A stretch of 64,000 nt of DNA from Octopus vulgaris (lineage: Eukaryota). How positions within the stretch are numbered: the stretch's first letter is position 1; each line of letters opens with the position of its first letter. This document shows, in pieces, positions 8,946 through 45,672 of this stretch. Made by a program: the position numbers and the translations under genes. The stretch lies in contig OX597840.1 in the NCBI GenBank assembly GCA_951406725.2, positions 2,480,001 through 2,544,000 on the forward strand, read 5' to 3'. Under the pieces are notes generated by a model. It made no database searches. It was not told the DNA's origin and saw nothing but the letters and a program-made list of their open reading frames with translations.

Positions 8946-9214
8946 TATAAGAAAATTCCTAGGCCCATGATGGGGCAAGAAATCACGATCCTGTAATCTA
9001 TCGTCTCGTACTGTATACTGTCTATCTAGCAGGGCTGCATAGTTTTTGAAATCTATAGAATGGGATATTAGACAGCCGCGTCAATTCCTCTTTATATACC
9101 GTAGTTTGTGGCTTTGTAGACAGAGCATCATGGAGAGCGCATACACATTGTGGAAATAAAAAAAATATAATAATAAATCTCTGAGCGAGATATAAACAGT
9201 AACTGCTCTATAAC

Positions 9215-9550
9215 ATAAGGGGGATCAGCCATCTGAATGTGGCTAGGGTCAGGGCGGGGTAGTGGGGGTGTTACTGATGCATTTAGCCCCAGGCGATCAT
9301 CAACGTCACCAGAAGGGCTGACACCATCTCGGTGTCCTTGCCAGCCTGCAAAGGGAGATCAGCCTCCCCGAAGATACGGATACTACATACGGACCGGTTT
9401 CGAGATTATTGCCTCTTGTCAACGTATGGTAAGCACCGCTCTTCGTTGAGTGACTTCCCCTACAGGCTGGATATATAGGGATTTTCACAGTAACCACAGT
9501 CACTGGCGTAGAAAATCCGTTACTGAACCGGTGAGTGTGTTACATCATAA
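9215..9550 (-). mobile_element. Retrozyme-like non-autonomous element (family R), copy 1
   Basis: Shares GATGATC.CCTGGGGCTAAA..CAGTAACACCC..AGCCA.ATT.AGATG and a hammerhead fold with 18776-19232. Confidence 0.65.
9386..9428 (-). ncRNA. Type I hammerhead ribozyme, U3-A8 core variant
   Basis: CAUACG-UUGACAA-GAGG-caauaa-UCUC-GAAA-CCGG-UC^CGUAUG: perfect 6-bp stem I, 4-bp stem II, palindromic ACCGGU stem III, GUC cleavage triplet. Confidence 0.75.
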
Positions 9551-13355: not shown

Positions 13356-13864
13356 GTATCTTTAAGTTCCTCCCCTCTCTCTCTATATATATATATATAC
13401 ATATATATACATATATACATACATATGTACATACATACACACTCACACACACACAAACACACACGAGTATATATATATATATACATATACATATATACAA
13501 ATTGAATAAATGTCTCCCTCCCCTTCCAACGCAACCACCAGCATCATCGCCACTATCAGCACCATTCCACCAACCTTCCAACCGACCTTCCCGCCAACCA
13601 TCCTCCACCACATACACTTTTGATTTAATAAATATATTTAAATCTCTCACTACCCTCTCTTTTATAGCACTAAAGTCTTTGATATTCAGCTTTTAAATCT
13701 CGAAAAGAATATCGAAATAAAAAGAAGACAAAAAAACGTATATATATAAATAAATCTGAAAATTCTTCAACAAATTCTATATCGTACCTAATTCCATTTT
13801 CGTGAAAGAATGAGCGTAAGTAATGTAGCATAAAAGCGGCGGCGGTGGCGTACACGGGGAACAA

Positions 13865-15637
13865 GGTGGTGGTGGCGGCGGCGGAGGTGACTGTGGTGGT
13901 GGTTGTGGTGGTGGTGGTTGTGGTGGTGGTTGTGGTGGTGGTAGTCGTCGCAGTTGTGGTTCTCCTGGAGGTGGTGGTGGTTTTGGTAGTGGTGTTGTAT
14001 TGGTGGTGTGGTGTTGATGCTGGTGATATGGAGGTGTTGATGGTGTTGGCGGTTAGGGCAGTTGTGGTGGTGGTGGTGGTTGTGGTGGTGGTAGTCGTCG
14101 TCGTTGTGGTTCTCCTGGAGGTGGTGGTGGTGGTTTTGATAATGGCGGTTGTGTGGTGTTGTATTGGTGGTTTGGCGTTGAAGCTGGTGATATGGAGGTG
14201 TTGATGGTGTTGGCGGTTAGGGCAGGTGTGGTGGTGGTGGTGGTGGTGGTGGTTGTGGTGGTGGTTGTCGTCATCGCAGTTGTGGTTCTCCTGGAGGTGG
14301 TGGTGGTGGTGTTGGTATTGGTGATTCCGGTGGTGCTGTTTTGGTGGTGGCGTTGATACTGGTGATATGGAAGTGTTAATGGTGGTAGCGGGTAGGGCAG
14401 TTGTGTGGTGGTGGCAGTGGTTGTCGTCGTCGTCGTTGTGGTTCTCCTGGAGGTGGTGGTGGTGGTGCTTTTGGTAGTGGTGGTTGTGTCTGTGATTCCG
14501 GTGGTGTTGTGTTGGTGGTGACGTTGACGCTGGTGATATGGAGTTGTTGATGGTGGTGTCGGTCGGAGCAATTGTGGTGGTGGTGTTGGTGGTGTTGGTG
14601 GTGTTGGTGGTGTTGGTGGTGGTGGTGATAGTGGTGTTTGTTGTAGCGGCCGTCGTCGTAACAGTGGTGCGGGTGGTGGTTCTGATAGTGCTTGTTAGTG
14701 GTAGTACTGGTGGTGATGCTTCTGATGTTGGTTGTATAGTGGTGTAGGTAGTGGCTCTGTTAGTGAAGTTGTTGGTGGGGGATTGGTGGGGCGGCAGTGA
14801 CGGTCATTGTGATGGTGGTAGTAGCGGTGGTAGCAGTGATTGGTGGTGGTAGTGGTGGTAGTGGTGGTGGTGGTGGTGGTTGTGGTTGTGGTGGTGTGGC
14901 AGTGGTGGTGGTGGTTGTGGTGGTAGTGGTGGTTGTGGTGGTAGTGGTTGTTGTGGTGGTGGCAGTTATGGTGGTGATGGTAGTGGTTGTTGTGGTGGTG
15001 GTTGTCGTGGTGGGGGTGGTGGTAGTGTTGGTTGTGGTCGTGGTGGTATGGTCGTCGTCTTCATCGTCGATATTATGGTTGCCGCGGATGTGGTAGTGGT
15101 GGTGGTGGTGGTAGTTAACGTGAATGTAACGTTGTAGTGGATACGTAGGTAGATTTGTAATGCTGGTGGTGACAGTGGTGGTGGTTGTACTGGTAATATT
15201 TGCGGTGGTTGTGGTGTTCTTGGTCATGTAATCATTATAATTTCTTTCATAATGGTGATGGTGGTAGTGTTGATGTTATTGATGATGATGATGATGATGA
15301 TGATGTCCACCACAACGACGATGATGATAGGGGATTATGATGATGATGATGGTGATGATGGTGGTTCCGTCAAGTTTCTTTTGACGATGATTATGAAGAG
15401 GAGGAGCAGCGGAGGAGGACGATTATGATGGTGATAATAATGAGAACAAACATGATGCCGATACTGCTGCTGCTGATAATGATGATGATCATGATCATCA
15501 TCATGATGATGGTGGGGATAAGGAGAGGCGTATTAGGAGGAGGAGGAGGAGGACGACGACGACAACAATGATGTTGATGATGATGATAATGATGATGATG
15601 ATAATGATGACGATGATGATGATGATGATGATGATGT

Positions 15638-15669
<32 letters not shown>

Positions 15670-15793
15670 ATGATGATATGATGACGATAATGATGCCTCC
15701 TCCGACGACGACGAGGAAGATGATCATGATAATGGTGGGGATAAGGAGAGGAGGATTGGGAGGAGGAGGATGAGGAGGACGACGACGACAACA

Positions 15794-15829
<36 letters not shown>

Positions 15830-15845
15830 TTGATGATGATGATGT

Positions 15846-15885
<40 letters not shown>

Positions 15886-16206
15886 AAGATGACGATAATG
15901 ATGCCGCCACCTCCTCCGACGACGAAGATGGTGATGATCATGTTTCATGATAGCCATTGTGGCGGCAGAGGCGGAGTAGGAGTCGGAGTCGGTGGCGGTG
16001 ATTGTATTTGTGCTGATGTTAGAAGAAAACGAATCCGAAATTCACAAAATAAAACGCATTAAACAACAAAAAAATATATATATATAAAACAAATAAAGAA
16101 AGATATAACATAGCAAAATCCACAAAAGCACAACAGCAACAGTAACAATTATAAATGGAAAATATAAAAAAAAAACAACGAGCAAACAACACTAAATTGA
16201 AATTAA

Positions 16207-16237
<31 letters not shown>

Positions 16238-16298
16238 AAGAAGAAGAAGAAGAAGAAGAAGAAGAAGAAGAAGAGGAAGCAGAGGAAGAATGATGATG

Positions 16299-16365
<67 letters not shown>

Positions 16366-16427
16366 TAATAATAATGATAATAATAATAATTATTATTATA
16401 ATAATAATAATAATAATAATAGTAATG

Positions 16428-16458
<31 letters not shown>

Positions 16459-16592
16459 TAATAATATAAATAATGATAATAATAATAATAATAATAATAA
16501 AAATAATAGTAAAAAAATAATAATAATAATAATAAAAATAATAATGATGATAATTATAATAATAATAAGAAGAAGAAGAAGAAGAAGAAGAA

Positions 16593-16651
<59 letters not shown>

Positions 16652-17350
16652 CGATGATGATGTGGATGATAATAATAATAATAATGACAATAATAATAAT
16701 AATCGCAACAATTGGATGACAAAAAAAATCTTGAAGACATTAAAGAGAAGAATAGAATAGAATAAGATAAATGAAATAGGAAGGAAAAAAAGGAAAGAAA
16801 GGAGGAAAGAATGAAGATAACATTTAATTAGATAACACCGGCATGTCTGGAGAGGATTTTGAAACTTTAATATAATAATATTGCCGGGAAATAGGATTAT
16901 GTCGGTGGTTGTGGAGGCGGTGGTGGTGGTGGTGATGGTGGTGGCGGCGGCGGTGGTGGTGGTGGTGGTGGTGGTGTCGGTGGTGGTGGTGGTGTCGGTG
17001 GTGGTGGTGGTGGTGGTGGTGGTAGTTATGATGGTCGTGGTGGTGGTGGTGATGGTGTTGGTGTTGGTGGTGGTAGTGGTGGTGGTGGTGGTGTCGGTGG
17101 TGGTAGTGGTGGTGGTGGTGGTGTCGGTGGTGGTGGTGGTGTCGATGGTGGTGGTGGCGGTGGTGGTTTCGGTGGTGGTGGTGGTGGTGTCGGTCGTGGT
17201 GGTAGTGGTGGTGGAGAAGGTGGTGGTGTCGGTGGTGGTGGTGGTGGTGGTGTCGGTGATGGCGGTGGTGGTGGTGGCGGTGGTGGTGGCGGTGAAGGTG
17301 TTGGTGGTGGTGGTGGTGGTGGTGGTGGTGTCGGTGGTGGTGACTGGTGT
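13865..17350. repeat. Large trinucleotide low-complexity block: (GGT)n, (GAT)n, (GAA)n, (TAA)n, (GGT)n
   Basis: Directly visible; includes internal 150-230 bp duplications. Confidence 0.95.
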
Positions 17351-17752
17351 TGTTGGGGGTGGACAGAAATAGACAGGTGATGAGGAGAGGATTGGTGAGA
17401 GGGGTTGCAGGGCGAGAGAAAGAGTAAAGAGAAGAGAGAGGGAAAGAGCAGGCAAAAATAGAAAAAACAATAAAACGATATGCATACACACACATACACA
17501 CACACACATACACACCTACATATATATATTCGGTTCTAATCTAGAAACGAATTCGTCCATAATTAATCCAATAGGCTGGGATTTCGTTGTCTTCTTTCTC
17601 TTTACCATATACGAGTTACAAATTCTGTTAGTTTGTGGAGACTGTTTTACTAGTAGTAGAAATAGTGACCTATCTGGCTGCTATTTCTAATATTTTCGGT
17701 ATGTGGTTTTGAGCAATTTGTGGCAATTAACCCTTTATTATATATTATATAT

Positions 17753-17915: not shown

Positions 17916-18123
17916 AAGTTAATCCAAACATGAAAACACAAAGAGAAAACACAACAACGCGAGGACGTGGAACAAATATAGTATTATTGGACGCTCAGGA
18001 AAGAAGGAAAGAAGGAGGTTTTAACGTTTCGAGCGGAGCTCTTCGTCAGGAACATAGGAAGAGGAACGATCCAAGGAAGGGAAGATGGAGGAAAAAAAGT
18101 CGCCAACAATACACACACGGTCA
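17915..18123 (-). mobile_element. PLE-derived short element P2 with intact-core hammerhead
   Basis: Minus strand CUGACGA-aGAGC-ucc-GCUC-GAAAC-GUUA^AAAC at 18049-18018. AACGUU palindrome. 3' end GGATTAACTT next to (TA)n. Confidence 0.75.
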
Positions 18124-18734
18124 AAATCCTGGTTACATATATCTCAGAGCTATCGGAACCAGGGAAGTAGTAAATTATCCAAACGAGGAGTAGACCGGAA
18201 GCTACACTTCAGGCCAAATATACTTTGATTATATAATGGTATGATCATAGTATCCTTAACCTGAAGAATAGCTTGCGGAGTACTCCTGGTTTGGATAATT
18301 TACTATTTCTGAGGTTTCTTGTTTTCGTATACATTCGCTGCTTTCTTCCAATGAGTGTAATGTTCTTAGGTCAATTATTCCTTGGGCCTGGCCAGATTGG
18401 AGCAATCTCGATTAAAACCAGCCGAAATTGAATAATTTACTATTTCCGAGGTTCCGCTACCTATGAAACATATGTAGCCCGAATTTTATCTTCTCCATTC
18501 CCTAATTTTTTAATGTTTATTTGCATATACAAGAACCATTGTAGTTAACCGTGGGCTGTAACATTAACTATTTCTCAGCTTATCGTACTTTGATATGGGA
18601 AAAGTCCATAAACGTCTACGCCAATAAACCATTATTGCTCCTGAAAGTTGTTTTTTGTATCTTCGACGGATTGCTTCAAGCTTCCTACATCTTGAGCCTT
18701 GGATCTTACCGTTACATACACATAAAAACATACA

Positions 18735-18768
<34 letters not shown>

Positions 18769-18775
18769 CATATAT

Positions 18776-19232
18776 AGTAACACCCACCCTTAGTGGTTAG
18801 CCATATTGAGATGGCTAGTATACTTTACGTTGTCGAGCGGTTACTGTTTACATCTCATTCAGAGATTTATTATTGCTTGCAGACAGTTTTTCGAAATCAG
18901 TGACGAAAGTTACTAGAAAAACCTATAAGTATTTGCAAAAAGGTCTTCCTTTCATCGTAAACCGGCGATTACCGTACCTTGACAGGAGGCAAATTACCTT
19001 GAAACTGCAGTCCGTGCGTATCGCTTAGGTTTACGAGAGAGGGATGACCTCCATTGGCAAATACCATAAGGGCACAGAAAGTGTGCCTAAAGCCTGCTGG
19101 AGACGATGATCTCCTGGGGCTAAAAGCTACAGTAACACCCACCCTTATTGGTCAGCCATATTGAGATGCTTATTATACTTTACGTTGTCGAGCGGTTACT
19201 GTTTACATCTCGTTCAGAGATTTATTATTGCT
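18776..19232 (+). mobile_element. Retrozyme-like family R, 355-bp unit present 1.29 times
   Basis: 18776-18877 repeats at 19131-19232. Hammerhead fold at 18973-19018. Flanked by TA/TACA repeats. Confidence 0.75.
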
Positions 19233-19245
19233 ATATATATATATA

Positions 19246-19387
19246 TGTCTACCAAATCCACTCACAAGGCTTTGGTCGGACCGGGGCTATAGTAAAAGAC
19301 ACTTGGCCAAGGTGTCACGCAGTGGGACTGATCCTGGAACCATGTGGTTGGTAAGCAACCTATATACCACACAGCCACTCCTACGCC
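19246..19387 (-). mobile_element. SINE family A head
   Basis: rc match to the A head. Confidence 0.85.
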
Positions 19388-19404
19388 TATGTATACAACG
19401 ATAA

Positions 19405-19639
19405 ACGTCGCCCTTTTCAAACCTAGCCAGGCTCATGGGCCCGGTTTCCCGGTTGATGTGGTTTATGTGTTCCCCCTTGCTGTGGCCACTGGCAGCATTA
19501 CTCAAGAAACAGGAAGAGAGAGTGAGAGAAAGTTCCTCGTGGAACTTTTAAGTCTTTTCGCTCAATAAATACACACAACGCCTGGTCTGGGAATCGAAAC
19601 CGCGAGTCCGTTGCCCTAACCACTGGGCCATTGCGCCCC
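19405..19639 (-). mobile_element. Diverged, deleted SINE family C-related copy
   Basis: rc GGCGCAATGGCCCAGTGGTTAGGGCAACGGACTCGCGGTTTCGATTCCCAGACC tRNA-like head; CTTTCTCTCACTCTCTTCC and AACCGGGAAACCGGGCCCATGAGCC as in 21152-21443. Confidence 0.75.
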
Positions 19640-19659
19640 CACACACTTATGTATATATA

Positions 19660-19709
<50 letters not shown>

Positions 19710-20479
19710 TTTTTTGTCTGTGTTTGTGTGTGTGTGTGCATGTGTATACATAAGAACATATATGTATGTAGGTATACACATTTGCAATGAGCTTTCTGCA
19801 AATTCAGTCAAAATAAATTGGCTGAGGCGGGAGTATCGTCGAAGGCACTTACCGAAGGTGCGGCCCTATAGGAACGAACCTGAAACCACGTAGTCACAAA
19901 TCAATCTTCTTAACCATAGAACCATGCTTGGTGCTTATATGCAATAGTAATAATTTCATGTTTCAAGTATTCCATGGAGACGGAATGCCAATGAATTTAA
20001 TATTGTTATTACATTAAGATATATTTGAAATAAATCTGAAAGAAACGTAACGTTTGTATATTTGGTAAAATATAGGTTATTAGTAACAACTAGTGGCCGC
20101 ACGTGAAAATTCCACAGAACAAAAAAAAAATAAGAGAAGCTATTGAAGAAAGATAGAATGAGTTGCATTTTTATTTTGCTAAGATATTTCACTTCCAGTC
20201 AGAATAAAATATTATATGAATTTAAAAATTTCCGTCTGCTAAGCAATTTATATTTCTTTCCTTCTGTCTACCAGTTCAACGAACTCTTTAATCATGTAAT
20301 TTTCCTCTTCAAGTCTTTAATATTTCTCTCTTTCTTTCTACCCTTTCAACAGACATTTTACCGAAGTAATTCCCCGTTTCATGCCTTTTAAATTTCTCTC
20401 TTTTTCTTCAGCTTTCCCTCCTCCCCCCTACAGCAACTCGCTAAAACTTCTCTCTCCCACAATTCTCCCACCGTCTGAA

Positions 20480-20894
20480 GGCGGCGAGCTGGCAGAAACG
20501 TTAGCACGCCGGGCGAAATGCGTAGCCGTATTTCATCAGGGGCTACGTTCTAAGTTCAAATTCCGCCGAGGTCGACTTTGCCTTTCATCCTTTCGGGGTC
20601 AATAAATTAAGTACCAGTTACGCACTGGGGTCGATATAATCGACTTAATCCGTGTGTCTGTCCTTGTTTGTCCCCTCTGTGTGTAGCCCCTTTAGGGTAG
20701 TAAAGAAATAAGTATTTCGTCTGCCGCTACGTTCTAAGTTCAAATTCCGCTGCGGTCGACTTTGCCTTTCATCCTTTCGGAGTTGATAAATTAAGTACCA
20801 GTTACGCAGTGGGGTCGATGTAATCGACTTAATCCCTTTGTCTCTCCTTGTTTGTTCCCTCGATGTTTAGCCCCTTATGGGCAATAAAGAAATA
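20480..20894 (+). mobile_element. SINE family B head-to-tail dimer with 18-bp TSD
   Basis: GGCGGCGAGCTGGCAGAAACG..GTTCAAATTCC..GCCTTTCATCCTTTCGGGGTC. TSD ACAATTCTCCCACCGTCT at 20459-20476 and 20895-20912. Confidence 0.9.
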
Positions 20895-21151
20895 ACAATT
20901 CTCCCACCGTCTTTTCTCCTTTCTCTTCGCCTCTCTCTTTAACTCACACCGTGCTGCATTTGGTTAGTGTATTATTATACTCCTCTCTTCTTTCTTCACC
21001 ACTGATGTTTCTCCCCCCCCCCTCTCTCTCTCTCTCACTTGTACTCCCCTTGTCACTCAGTCCAACTTTCTAACTAAATTAGAGAAGGCGAACGAAAAAG
21101 CAGGTTATTTTATAGACATTACTTTTTAGTTATCATTAAATTACAAATAGT

Positions 21152-21748
21152 GGAGGTACATGGCATAGTGGTTAGAGCAGCGGACTAGCGGCCGAGGGAT
21201 CGCGGGCTCGAATCTCAGACCGGACGATGTGTGTATTTATGAGCGAAACACCTAAGCTCCACGCGGCTCCGGCAGAAGGTAATGGCGAACTTCTGCGGAC
21301 TCTTTCGCCACAACTTTCTCTCACTCTTTCCTCCTGCATCTTGCAGCTCACCTGCGACGGACCGGCGTACCGTCCAGGTGAGGAACCTATACATCAAGGA
21401 AACCGGGAAGCCAGGCGTGACTCGAGAAGGAACAAACAACAACATATATATATGTGTGTGGAGGTACATGGCATAGTGGTTAGAGCAGCGGACTAGCGGC
21501 CGAGGGACCGCGGGTTCGAATCTCAGACCGGACAATGTCTGTATTTATGAGCAAGACACCTCAGCTCCACGTGGCTCCGGCAGAAGGTAAAGGCGAACTT
21601 CTGCTGACTCTTTCGCCACAACTTTCACTCTTTCCTCTTGCAGCTCACCTGCGACGAATCGGCGTCCCGTCCAGGTGAGGAACCCACACCCCAAGGAAAC
21701 CTGGAAATCGGCCCTATGAGCCAGATGAGGCTCGAGGAGGAACAAACA
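21152..21748 (+). mobile_element. Two tandem tRNA-derived SINE family C copies
   Basis: GGAGGTACATGGCATAGTGGTTAGAGCAGCGGACT..GGTTCGAATCTC heads at 21152 and 21460; (AAC)n-type tails; ATTACAAAT at 21140-21148 and 21750-21758. Confidence 0.9.
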
Positions 21749-21869
21749 TATTACAAATGAAATATCGGTTGTAAATAATGTAAATGATGTACATAATTTC
21801 TCATCTCTTAAGTATAGAACTGTACTATAAATAATAGTCAGAGAGAGTGAGAAAGAGCGAGAAGAAGGG

Positions 21870-22275
21870 AGAGACAGAAGGAGAAGAAGAAGAAGAAGAA
21901 GAAGAAGAAGAAGAAGAAGAAGGAGAAGGATAAGAAGAAGGAGGAGAAGGAGGAGGAGAAGAAGAAGGAGGAGAAGAAGAAGAAGATGAAGAAGAAGATG
22001 AAGGAGGAGGAGGAGAAGGTGGAGGAAGGAAGAAGAAGAAGAAGAAGAAGAAGGAGAAGGATAAGAAGAAGGAGGAGGAGGAGGAGAAGAAGAAGAAGAA
22101 GAAGAAGAAGAAGAAGAAGAAGGAGGAGGAGGAGAAGAAGAAGAAGAAGAAGAAGAAGAAGATGAAGAAGAAGGAGGAGGAGAAGAAGAAGAAGAAGAAG
22201 AAGAAGAAGAAGAAGAAGAAGAAGAAGAAGAAGAAGAAGAAGAAGAAGAAGAAGAAGAAGAAGAAGAAGAAGAAA
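21870..22275. repeat. (GAA)n/(GGA)n polypurine tract
   Basis: Directly visible. Confidence 0.95.
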
Positions 22276-23030
22276 ACTGGGCCCAACAGTGGTCAGCGTG
22301 ACCTCCAGGTACATTTCGGCCTTTTGGGGGCTTTTGAAAAGATCGAACGTGCCACCAACCATATAGTTACACGAAAATTAGTCGTCTCTGATATGAGAAA
22401 AGTGAAAACAACAGTCACTGCTATTTATTTATTCATAACCTTTCAAGCTTTTGTATTCGAGTAATTAATCTTTAGTCATCAACCTTATAACAATATGCAA
22501 ATGATTTTGGGCCTCGGTTCATAGTTGTTTACATTATAATAAATAGCCCCCAGTCATTAACACCATCAGTTAATGAAGTAGATTTTCGCTATAGAACTCG
22601 TCTTCAAAACTAGACAATTAATAATTAAAGCGAAATTAATAGCGAGAAAAAACAATGCCCGAATCGAATCAACGTTTATATAACATACACCAGCCAGAAA
22701 CAATAAAAAAAATATTAACCAAATTAGCGCTGATAGAAAGCCGCCAACGTTTACAAGTTAAATCACGGTGCTAATGACAGCACTAAAATAACACCAACGC
22801 CATTTTGTTCAGACGACTATATATGGAATTTTAGTAAACGAGGCACCAGCGCCAACAGGTTTTGCCAAAAGTTGAAAGACAGAGGGTCTAAAAATCACTT
22901 TTATTAATGTCGATTTTACCGTTTCAAAAAATAATTCAAAGGGAACTCTGATTAAAAGAAAGCAAAGATAACTCTTTGTAGGGCTATCCATCTGTCTGTC
23001 TTTCTACCTACCTACATACCTATGTATGTA

Positions 23031-30234: not shown

Positions 30235-30989
30235 ATGCAAACACCACAAATATATATATATGCACGTGCACAAACACACAACCGCACACAGAAAGGCCGT
30301 CTTATGCACATTCACAGTTACAGACCCGCAAGCGCTCACCTCCATTTTAAAGACATACCTACATCCAACCGAGCGCCATCTACCTGCTTCGTGCACAAGA
30401 GATCCATATTCACACACACACACACATACACAAATACACAAACACGTACACATACATACATACAAAGACACGCACACAGGTAATCTTACACACGCTCAGG
30501 CTCACACACAAACAGGCGTTTACCACCATTTTAATCACATACCTACACGCAAACGCGGGCCGTGCACATATACACACATACCAAATTACCTAGAAACCCA
30601 AGCATGGTAATCCGTACTTACAAACACTCACACATACCACAAATATGACATCGAATGTTGTAAGCCGACACATTCTTGCCTTAAAATATTGAATTATTAC
30701 TGTCAGAAGACGAAGTGGGAATTTTCGCCACGAAATGAAAGCGAAAGTTGATATACGACCATTTTCGCCATCTTAGCTCTCGCACAAACTGACAATGAGC
30801 CAGGCGAGCGCAAAGCGTTGATTAACACCTCCTGGTAATAATATGTACACACAGAGATAGGTTACTTTCTGACTTAATCTGCATATATTGAATACGGAGG
30901 TCTCAGCTCCCAGACTCGAAAATGTCCGGCTATTTGATCTCATTGCAAATTGTTGCAGGTATTCTGGTTGCTGAAGATTTGTTTCGTAA

Positions 30990-32400
30990 TGGTGATGGGA
31001 GTAGCAGTTGTGTTAATGATGGTTGTGGTGGTGGTAGTGATGGTCTTAGTGGTGGTGGAGGTGGTGGCTGGTTGTGATGGTGGTGGTGGTGGTGGTGGTG
31101 CGTCGCTGGTTGTTATGGTTGTGGTCTTTCTGATGTCTGCTGTCGTTGTTGCCAATATGTGTGGTGGTGGATGTGATGATGGTGACGATGACGATGGTGG
31201 TGGTGGTGGTGGTGGTGGTGGTGGTGGTGGTGTTGGTGTGGTTGTGGTAGTTGTGGTGGTGGTGGTGATGGTGGTTGTGGTGGTGGTAGTGATGGTCTTA
31301 GTGGTGGTGGAGGTGGTGGCTGGTTGTGATGGTGGTGGTGGTGGTGGTGGTGGTGATGGTGGTGGTCTTTCTGATGTCTGCTGTCGTTGTTGCCAATATG
31401 TTTGGTGGTGGATGTGATGATGGTGACGATGATGATGGTGGTGGTGGTGGTAGTTGTGGTGGTGATTGTGGTAGTTGCGGCGGTGGTGGTGGTGTTGGTT
31501 GTGGTAGTTGTGGTGGTTGTGTTGGTGGGGGGTGATGGTGGTGGCGGTGGTGGCGGTGGTGGTTGTGGTTGTGGGAGTTGTGGTGGTGGTGGTAGTTGTG
31601 GTGGTGGTGGTGGTGGTGGTGGTGGTGGTGGCGCTGGTGGTGTTTGTGGTTATGGTAGTTGTGGTGGTGGTGGAATTGGTTGTGGTTGTGGTAGTTGTGG
31701 TGGTGGTGGTAGTGGCGGCGGTGGTAGTTGTGGTAGTTGTGGTGGTAGTTGTGGTGGTAGTAGTGGAGCTAATGCTGCTTCTGCAGATGATGATGGTGTA
31801 GCAGTGATGTTGGTGATGAATGTAATGATGACGATGATGATAATGATGGTTGTAGTGGTCGTGGTGCTGGTGGTCGTTGTGCTGGTGGTAGTGGCGGTGG
31901 TGGTAGTGGTGATTGTAGTGGTGGTGGTGGAAGGGTAGTGATAATACTTCTGCAAATGATGATGATGGGGTTAGTGGTAATGGTGGCGGTGGTAATGATG
32001 ATGATGATGATGTCGACGACGACGACGACGACGATGATGATGATGGTGGTGGTGGTGATGGTGGTGAAGGTGGATGATGTAGGTAGTGTCCTTTGAGTTG
32101 ATAGTCATAATGGTGGCAGTAGTGGCTTTGTTAATGGTTGTGGTGTTAATGGTTGTGGTGGTGATGGTTGTGGTGGTGTGGTAATGCTGGTGGGGATGTT
32201 GGTGCTGGTGATGATGATGGTGACGGTGGTGGTAATGGTTGTGACAAATGTGCCGGTGGTGGTGGTGGTGGTGATGTTAAAGATAATGGTAATTGTGTTG
32301 GTGGTGATGGAAGGTGGTGGCGGCGGCGGCGGTGGTGATGGTGGTGGTGCGGGGGGGGGTTATGGTAGTACAGCTGCTGCTGGTGCTGCTGGTGATGGTT
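30990..32400. repeat. (GGT)n/(GAT)n low-complexity block with ~250-bp internal duplication
   Basis: 31020-31200 repeats at 31270-31450. Confidence 0.92.
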
Positions 32401-45019: not shown

Positions 45020-45672
45020 TGTTTCTTTATTGCCAACAAGGGCCTAAACATAGAGGGAGCAAACAAGGACAGACAAAGGGATTAAGTCGATTACATCGAC
45101 CCCAGAATAATATCACTCGAAGATGTATTTGCCAGGGGTAAAAAATTCACGGGGATATTCTGGGAATATTTATGTTTTTGTTGATACAACATATTTCAAT
45201 ACATGTCGATACATACTTGGTGATATTTCCTTTTGTTATTCTTATTTTTTATTTCTTATATCTTTACTGTCAACATGGGGCTAAACATAGAGGGGACAAA
45301 CAAGGACAGACAAAGGGATCAAGTCAATTACATCGACCCCAGCGCGTAACTTATACTTAATTTATCGACCCAGAAAGGATGAAAGGCAAAGTCGACCTCG
45401 GCAGAATTTGAAATCAGAACGCAACGACAGACGAAATACCTATTTATTTACTACCCTCAAGGGGCTAAACACAGAAAGGACAAACAAGGACAGACAAATG
45501 GATTAAGTCGATTATATCGAACCTAGTGCGTAACTGCTACTTTATTTAATCGACCCCGAAAGGATGAAAGGTAAAGTCGACCTCGGCAGAATTTGAACTC
45601 AGAATGTAACGGCAGACGAAATACCACTAAGCATCTCTCCCAGCGTGCTAACGTCTCTGCCAGCTCACCACC
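45020..45672 (-). mobile_element. Cluster of three SINE family B copies or fragments
   Basis: Fragments at ~45020-45105, 45255-45440 and 45441-45672. Confidence 0.85.

Follow-up and report, generated by a model that had tools for sequence, protein, structure and literature searches.

The insertion at 18776-19232 of the 64,000-nt stretch of Octopus vulgaris DNA analysed here (the window) belongs to a dispersed, non-coding 355-bp repeat family carrying a predicted type I hammerhead ribozyme. Taken as a whole, the family is best explained by mobilisation through a Penelope-like reverse transcriptase/GIY-YIG endonuclease acting by target-primed reverse transcription, a reading to which we give a probability of about three in four. 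The features of the window copy are listed in Table 1, where the unit coordinate u is the window position minus 18775.

Table 1. Features of the 355-bp window copy and of the related copy in the same window.
Feature	Position	Strand	Description
Whole insertion	18776..19232	+	Single-armed, 5'-truncated 355-bp non-coding retrozyme copy, 1.29 units
Upstream partial unit, pLTR-like	18776..18877	+	u1-102; one difference from the family's common bases
Downstream repeat	19131..19232	+	u1-102; conserved stem u0-7 with u66-72 and terminal hairpin; both fixed 3' ends inside
Fixed end 1 19186 (u56), 46-nt 'tail', fixed end 2 19232 (u102)	19186..19232	+	Mapped copy ends
Left flank	18729..18775	.	(TACA)n/(TA)n target; target duplication not resolvable
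Right flank	19233..19246	.	(TA)n target
ATCAGT box	18896..18901	+	58 nt before ATCG start; predicted snRNA-type promoter element, putative function
Predicted transcription start 18954 (u179) and site-specific LINE target	18951..18970	+	u176-195 duplicated in other copies; empty in the window copy
Predicted long stem with hammerhead at tip	18929..19065	+	Folded on intact array unit, u154-290
Type I hammerhead (predicted)	18973..19018	+	U3-A8 core, palindromic helix III; G2.1C 18978, A9G 18985, C11.1U 19000
Predicted cleavage site GUC^C	19012..19013	+	u237/238; from sequence
360-bp sister-family copy	9165..9521	-	357 nt from homologous 3' end; intact U3-A8 hammerhead, core at 9422

A decayed copy of a protein-free repeat

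Self-comparison of the sequence revealed direct repeats of 105 nt (18773-18877 and 19128-19232; 93.3% identity, offset 355), of which 3 nt lie outside the element, leaving 102 nt within its bounds. This agrees with the first-pass annotation, which had described a 355-bp unit copied 1.29 times, 102-bp direct repeats, a non-coding core and termini other than TG..CA. TG..CA ends are absent from the window copy, which is flanked by TA repeats; there is no coding frame, the longest Met-initiated frame in a natural three-unit stretch being 35 aa, and ARAGORN called no tRNA in 18000-20000. The copy ends at u102, and its upstream partial unit appears to be the remnant of copying beyond one full unit.

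The genome searched comprises 2.8 Gb in 227 contigs. A 22-mer from the repeat has 540 exact matches in it, a control 22-mer none, and the recurrence of the 355-bp repeat is not due to chance. The window locus is an ordinary decayed copy of a protein-free mobile repeat.

Other repeats were seen in the window. A very abundant dispersed repeat, which we take to be SINE-like, adjoins the element at 19247-19400 (contig depth >100,000 at 19246-19287; no tRNA called by ARAGORN). A 296-bp dispersed repeat is present at 20603-20898 and 45253-45548 in opposite orientation (87% alike). Long open frames of trinucleotide repeats (13670-17540, 21545-22464 and 30938-32130), with runs of Thr, Ser and His, are probably microsatellite artefacts.

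Copies end at two fixed points

From the 540 matches, 100 were taken in order of position, beginning with the first; all lie on contigs 1-3, and they gave 79 distinct loci with 132 arms. The 3' ends of 66 arms lie at u48-60 and those of 53 at u95-106, with 13 elsewhere, so that 119/132 fall at two sites; the preferred positions, u56 and u102, are 46 nt apart. As the probe covers u34-55, earlier ends are under-sampled, but any end lying between the peaks or past them would have been seen. The 5' ends are scattered across the whole unit. Circular permutation, as claimed in the first-pass annotation, is contradicted by this mapping, the 3' ends not being random. Randomly primed copying of a circle, giving circularly permuted insertions, would account for the spread of 5' ends, but it is refuted by the fixed 3' ends of the arms and by the homologous 3' end of the second window copy (see below), and we consider it extremely improbable.

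Two arms are arranged head to head in 53 of the 79 loci. Wherever both ends of such a pair could be typed, u102 was combined with u56 (39/39); pairs of two u56 or two u102 ends were not found (0 each), and the probability of such strict pairing under independent choice is about 1e-12. The 5' ends of the paired arms lie within 35 nt of each other in 21 of the 39 pairs, compared with 9.9 by permutation, and 26/119 arms exceed one unit. The first 12 flank bases are 87% AT, and 45/118 arms end in TA repeats. In the two-arm loci of both samples (n = 54), TA repeats are present on both sides in 11, and target duplications of 7-15 nt were found in 27 of the 43 with non-TA flanks, against 3.9 in shuffled pairs.

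Viewed alone, the window locus resembles short terminal repeats around a core, as in a TRIM or an LTR-type retrozyme with true 102-bp terminal repeats. The family data refute this reading, whose probability we regard as negligible: the length of the direct repeat differs between loci according to the 5' end, the majority of loci consist of inverted arms without a direct repeat, target duplications measure 7-15 rather than 4-5 bp, and TG..CA is lacking. Furthermore, the hammerhead is of type I and lies outside the repeated part of the window copy, not of type III inside an LTR.

A second copy had been placed at 9215-9550 and credited with a permuted start. It actually spans 9165-9521 on the minus strand and belongs to a separate 360-bp family, being 68.6% alike to the window 355-bp copy over 293 nt. 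It shares the homologous 3' end and so differs only by 5' truncation. This sister family, for which 5 of 30 loci were dropped (two from the same array, three possible segmental duplicates), has two fixed ends of its own, with a homologous 3' end, and is younger than the 355-bp family. At one locus of the 355-bp family (L050), a pair of copies stops within the hammerhead, at u231, with AT-rich DNA after them, possibly a minor third end or a duplicated deletion.

A Penelope-like footprint

Penelope-like elements (PLEs) are described as 5'-truncated, with partial tandem copies, a 5' copy in inverted orientation, (TA)n targets and, at one end, a tail of 30-40 bp (PMC8557442). Purified Poseidon enzyme of the anole cleaves and elongates both strands, favours AT-rich DNA and uses two internal RNA start sites which bound the tail (PMC11167929). 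The octopus family has the corresponding traits of a non-autonomous PLE: two fixed 3' ends bounding a tail, 5' truncation, partial tandem copies, an inverted 5' copy and AT-rich or (TA)n targets. Penelope-type pasting is likely because the relatives end at two fixed points and not at random. Since the two ends match the two internal starts of Poseidon (PMC11167929), u56 and u102 are read as probable start sites of reverse transcription.

The genome contains intact elements with reverse transcriptase and GIY-YIG domains in two families, of 781 aa and 775 aa (150 of 6136 GIY-YIG candidates were scored). It had been proposed that fixed ends matching the terminal repeat of a long autonomous element would speak against a circle. 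Fixed 3' ends were found, and in the two intact PLE families there was no homology of the unit to an autonomous PLE end and no matching terminal repeat. Fixed ends are no refutation of a circle, since PLE reverse transcriptase begins copying from internal sites of fixed position (PMC11167929). Unit matches beside two PLE loci (L156 and L163) were rejected as unrelated neighbours.

The 781-aa family (L146-L165) is young; its pseudo-LTRs measure 509 bp, and an upstream frame of 479 codons has no Pfam match. The 775-aa family (L163:2582-4983, L285-L314) is very young, with 76/76 scored copies at 100% identity, and ends in TA repeats. About 140 nt before its 3' end a hammerhead-like motif with a CCGAAGA core was seen by eye; it is absent from the pattern scan.

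The hammerhead is kept in the family and damaged in the window copy

The core of the hammerhead is conserved in 133 copies (G5 in 131, A6 in 133, A9 in 131, G12 in 132, A13 in 131, A14 in 130 and C17 in 130). At pair 3-8, 75 of them have U-A and 45 have C-G. Pair 2 of helix I is C-G in 105 and U-A in 11, and pair 4 of helix II is G-C in 112 and A-U in 11, giving 11 double (compensatory) changes in each helix, counts which represent a few subfamily events and are not independent. In one subfamily group, U4C is found (36/133 copies) and the G10.1-C11.1 pair is missing (49/133). The type I hammerhead of the family thus covaries, including the U3-A8/C3-G8 exchange, and is a predicted self-cutting motif. 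There are three ribozyme cores within one lineage, reflecting the age of the family. The palindromic helix III is a trait of hammerheads thought to act as dimers.

Folded as a circle, an intact array unit has -105.8 kcal/mol (z -5.15 compared with 60 shuffles), with the hammerhead topping a long stem. Folds of the single motif showed no significance (z -1.18 and 0.07), and an Rfam search detected the hammerhead neither at the gathering score nor at E 1.

For the window copy, the position of the hammerhead and its cleavage site at 19012/19013 stand as first annotated, but the helix I given there does not: C 18978 opposes C 19013, breaking the core-adjacent pair, and position 9 is G instead of A. 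The lesions of this copy recur as follows at other loci: G2.1C in 1/105, A9G in 0/106 and C11.1U in 2/112. The hammerhead of the window copy is likely impaired and probably dead as a source of circles; because it has three lesions and only one ribozyme, this copy should not itself be able to yield a circle.

A predicted start site that is also the target of a LINE

The ATCAGT box of the unit lies 58 nt before ATCG at 18954, a spacing like that of U2 snRNA genes. Among 14 usable U2 loci (L383 was left out of the count), 12 have ATCAGT, in one case ATTAGT, 57-61 nt before the ATCG start, and the remaining two have a LINE-like tail in place of the box. An snRNA-type transcription start at u179 is therefore predicted as likely. 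At two U2 loci (L374 and L381), the 90 nt before the U2 start resemble the 3' tail of a related LINE; a sister LINE family therefore inserts at the first base of U2 genes.

Three unit copies break off at u195 and continue into a 5.3-kb L1/Tx1-like LINE with endonuclease, reverse transcriptase, zf-RVT and CCHC domains. Of 207 candidate 3' ends of this LINE, 40 were scored and the best 30 evaluated, one of which is the query's own locus. The unit follows in 25 of the best 30 (L315, L316, L319-L368, e.g. G000:C4:6174900-6184800), in several subfamilies, and starts at u176-179 in 23 of these 25 cases. The other ends are followed by a deleted unit (one), by the target and another LINE (two) or by a different hammerhead-like sequence (two). 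Target duplications at the LINE insertions reach 14-20 nt. An apparent pile-up of 5' ends at u176-177 was rejected, as those arms run on upstream as LINE insertions.

A second LINE family, 81% alike, has the identical insertion site (L315, L318 and L346). At L325 and L345 the 5.3-kb LINE is closely followed by a hammerhead-like sequence that is unrelated and has a CCGAUGA core, probably another retrozyme family.

The 5.3-kb LINE resembles target-specific Tx1-clade LINEs (Tx1L, Keno, Tx1-Mar; PMC4494074) in its fixed site within another repeat, the 14-20-bp duplication and tandem re-insertion; it differs in that its site is the predicted start of a ribozyme repeat. In the open-licence papers searched, neither a Tx1 element in a hammerhead repeat nor an snRNA-type promoter in retrozymes is reported.

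The RNA template

We propose the following cycle. Transcription would begin at u179 under an snRNA-type promoter inside the unit; where a locus has two hammerheads, cleavage of the transcript at u238 and ligation would yield a circle of 355 nt. Both DNA strands would be cleaved by a PLE enzyme acting as a dimer, which would prime from both DNA ends on a single RNA, one at u102 and the other at u56; copying would traverse the ligated cleavage site and the start site, and from u102 just over one lap would give the 1.29-unit layout of the window copy. Longer arrays would also grow after insertion, by re-insertion into the copy's own tail and by unequal exchange. The complete scheme of a self-contained circular-RNA parasite, in which internal promoter and hammerhead would make the circle, the dimeric enzyme would prime both strands at paired sites 46 nt apart and the promoter would be regenerated past one lap, is tentative and falls somewhat short of even odds. 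Its weakest step, the circular RNA template, stands at about even odds.

Arms read through both critical positions. In the bin holding u238, 4/61 arms stop and 57 pass; near u179 only 2/44 first-pass arms stop, one of them at a LINE. Neither a once-read cut monomer nor a one-unit transcript is thus the usual template, and the promoter at u121 is regenerated only by reading beyond both u238 and u179.

A cut linear monomer (u238 to u237) could nevertheless serve if the enzyme jumped from its 5' end to the 3' end of the same or another molecule. Such jumping would account for chimeric laps and for a cluster of second-pass stops at u216-239 (9/19). We think it unlikely, as first-pass arms do not stop at u238 (4/61 in its bin), 10/19 arms pass u216 on the second lap, and the switch in L097 lies between u64 and u131 and not at u238. 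Three second-pass 5' ends (L385, L407 and L409) were found exactly at u221, the 3' strand of helix II.

Divergence within loci is 4.25% between arms and 5.2% between laps, and 7.4% between loci; the corresponding values for the 360-bp sister family are 1.28%, 1.33% and 3.28%. This supports one template per insertion event, with laps that usually share a haplotype. Stops per base rise from 0.54% before to 1.02% after one lap (P 1.4e-4), and at u216-242 from 0.72% to 2.1% (P 0.024). Stops about twice as common after one lap are expected if the enzyme meets its own product. Within the position-sampled set by itself the rise falls short of significance (P 0.10), and u102 arms show no onset at one lap (4 stops/961 nt); later deletion between direct repeats could mimic it. 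The exact two-lap pattern is found at only 20 loci genome-wide (28 matches, 9 of them in one array), a small number of potential linear masters.

Other loci point to tandems of different origin. In three or four of 16 long overlaps (L069, L077, L097 and, borderline, L227), the laps come from different subfamilies. L097 has a 28-nt tail duplication and looks like a second insertion into the tail of an older copy. The ten-unit array L164 (G000:C4:13620759-13624368) consists of two interleaved haplotypes five changes apart, with two mixed units; ten laps of one circle were rejected as its origin, since it has two haplotypes and not ten identical laps. Some tandems have arisen by re-insertion or later expansion, without a circle. 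At L338 a copy continues into 1 kb of LINE sequence, which may be read-through of an uncut hammerhead or a LINE insertion with target deletion.

The same element and enzyme could also work on RNA that stays linear and uncut, either a multimer or a read-through transcript, supplied by a small number of master arrays, the arrays being rebuilt by tail re-insertion and unequal exchange and the hammerhead having no role in transposition. In vitro, hammerhead cleavage is dispensable and the enzyme works mainly on uncut RNA (PMC11167929); tandems formed without a circle are seen in L097 and the two-haplotype array, L338 is possibly a case of copying through an uncut hammerhead, and a homogeneous array would likewise give one-haplotype laps. 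On the other hand, 5' ends do not accumulate at the predicted start u179 (2/44 on the first pass; the second-pass ends at L402 and L411 are LINE insertions), 29 single-arm loci have no common upstream host sequence, two-lap loci are scarce, and the hammerhead core has been kept across subfamilies. We judge the linear multimer doubtful, less probable than the circular template though well ahead of monomer jumping.

Contigs of 4/4 runs guessed to be RNA contain family sequence, and contigs show neither ends, strand nor circles; contig depth drops upstream of about 18994, a fall that only a DNA control would make interpretable. Ligation at the cleavage site should restore the genomic sequence, so that any read spanning 19012/19013 would match the genome colinearly and say nothing about a circle. 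A signature of RNA editing, which would tie laps to one molecule, was sought and rejected: A>G changes are not in excess among the rare variants that laps share (8 of 34, with 4 T>C; 0/5 in the sister family).

Discussion

The assignment made in the first-pass annotation, an animal non-LTR retrozyme with a type I hammerhead and more than one unit per reverse transcription, is supported. At the level of sequence the family has every property of that class: a non-coding unit in the range of 170-400 bp, a predicted type I hammerhead, and head-to-tail repeats with at least two hammerheads, the last in the ten-unit array and other multi-lap loci and not at the window locus. Units of known animal non-LTR retrozymes measure 350-390 in mussel and 330/350 in axolotl, and PLEs have been proposed as their mobiliser (Cervera and de la Pena 2020, PMC7229834). 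Shared features are the non-coding unit of about 350 bp, the type I hammerhead, the short palindromic helix III, the strongly self-paired fold and the co-existence with PLEs; cleavage and circles are predictions in the octopus. In contrast to the retrozymes described there, the octopus copies are mostly dispersed, with fewer than 1.5 units and two head-to-head arms instead of tandem arrays, and non-canonical U3-A8 and U4C cores occur beside C3-G8. A term search of that paper gave no mention of octopus or cephalopods.

Li, Clavereau and Pollet (bioRxiv 10.64898/2026.07.22.740005) regard non-LTR retrozymes as non-autonomous PLE derivatives. Their conclusion is the same as ours, for units that measure about 300-360 bp and have numerous monomeric copies; their link is drawn from co-occurrence and pLTR similarity, whereas ours comes from insertion ends, no homologous pLTR having been found in the two PLE families compared. 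No mollusc is named between the abstract and the discussion of that preprint.

Compared with endonuclease-bearing (EN+) PLEs (anole Poseidon, PMC11167929; PMC8557442), the octopus family is alike in two internal starts bounding a tail, extension of both strands, AT-rich targets, 5' truncation, partial tandem copies and an inverted 5' copy. It differs in having no ORF and a tail of 46 nt instead of 30-40 (PMC8557442), and its start sites are strictly paired, one per strand, while Poseidon in vitro showed no strand difference (PMC11167929). The U3-A8 core is a likeness to the Cercyon PLEs of Schistosoma, from which it is known, and a circle has been proposed for more-than-unit copying in PLEs since 2014 (PMC4209133). 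In the open-licence papers searched, neither cephalopod retrozymes nor twin priming or paired start sites in Penelope elements are reported.

What the 355-bp family adds is age, that is, three cores and signs of array growth after insertion. As arrays also lengthen through re-insertion and subsequent expansion, a tandem arrangement does not by itself prove a circle.

These results bear on the movement of animal retrozymes and on the restoration of the upstream repeat in Penelope elements. A circle has been proposed, while in the only in vitro study RNA that had not been cut was sufficient (PMC11167929). With its short unit and hundreds of copies, the family preserves a record of each step of transposition, and the 39/39 pairing of start sites is a precise biochemical prediction. 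If true, the reading as a circular-RNA parasite would explain the pLTRs, tails and inverted arms of PLEs in one mechanism, and a LINE would in turn capture the promoter of the retrozyme.
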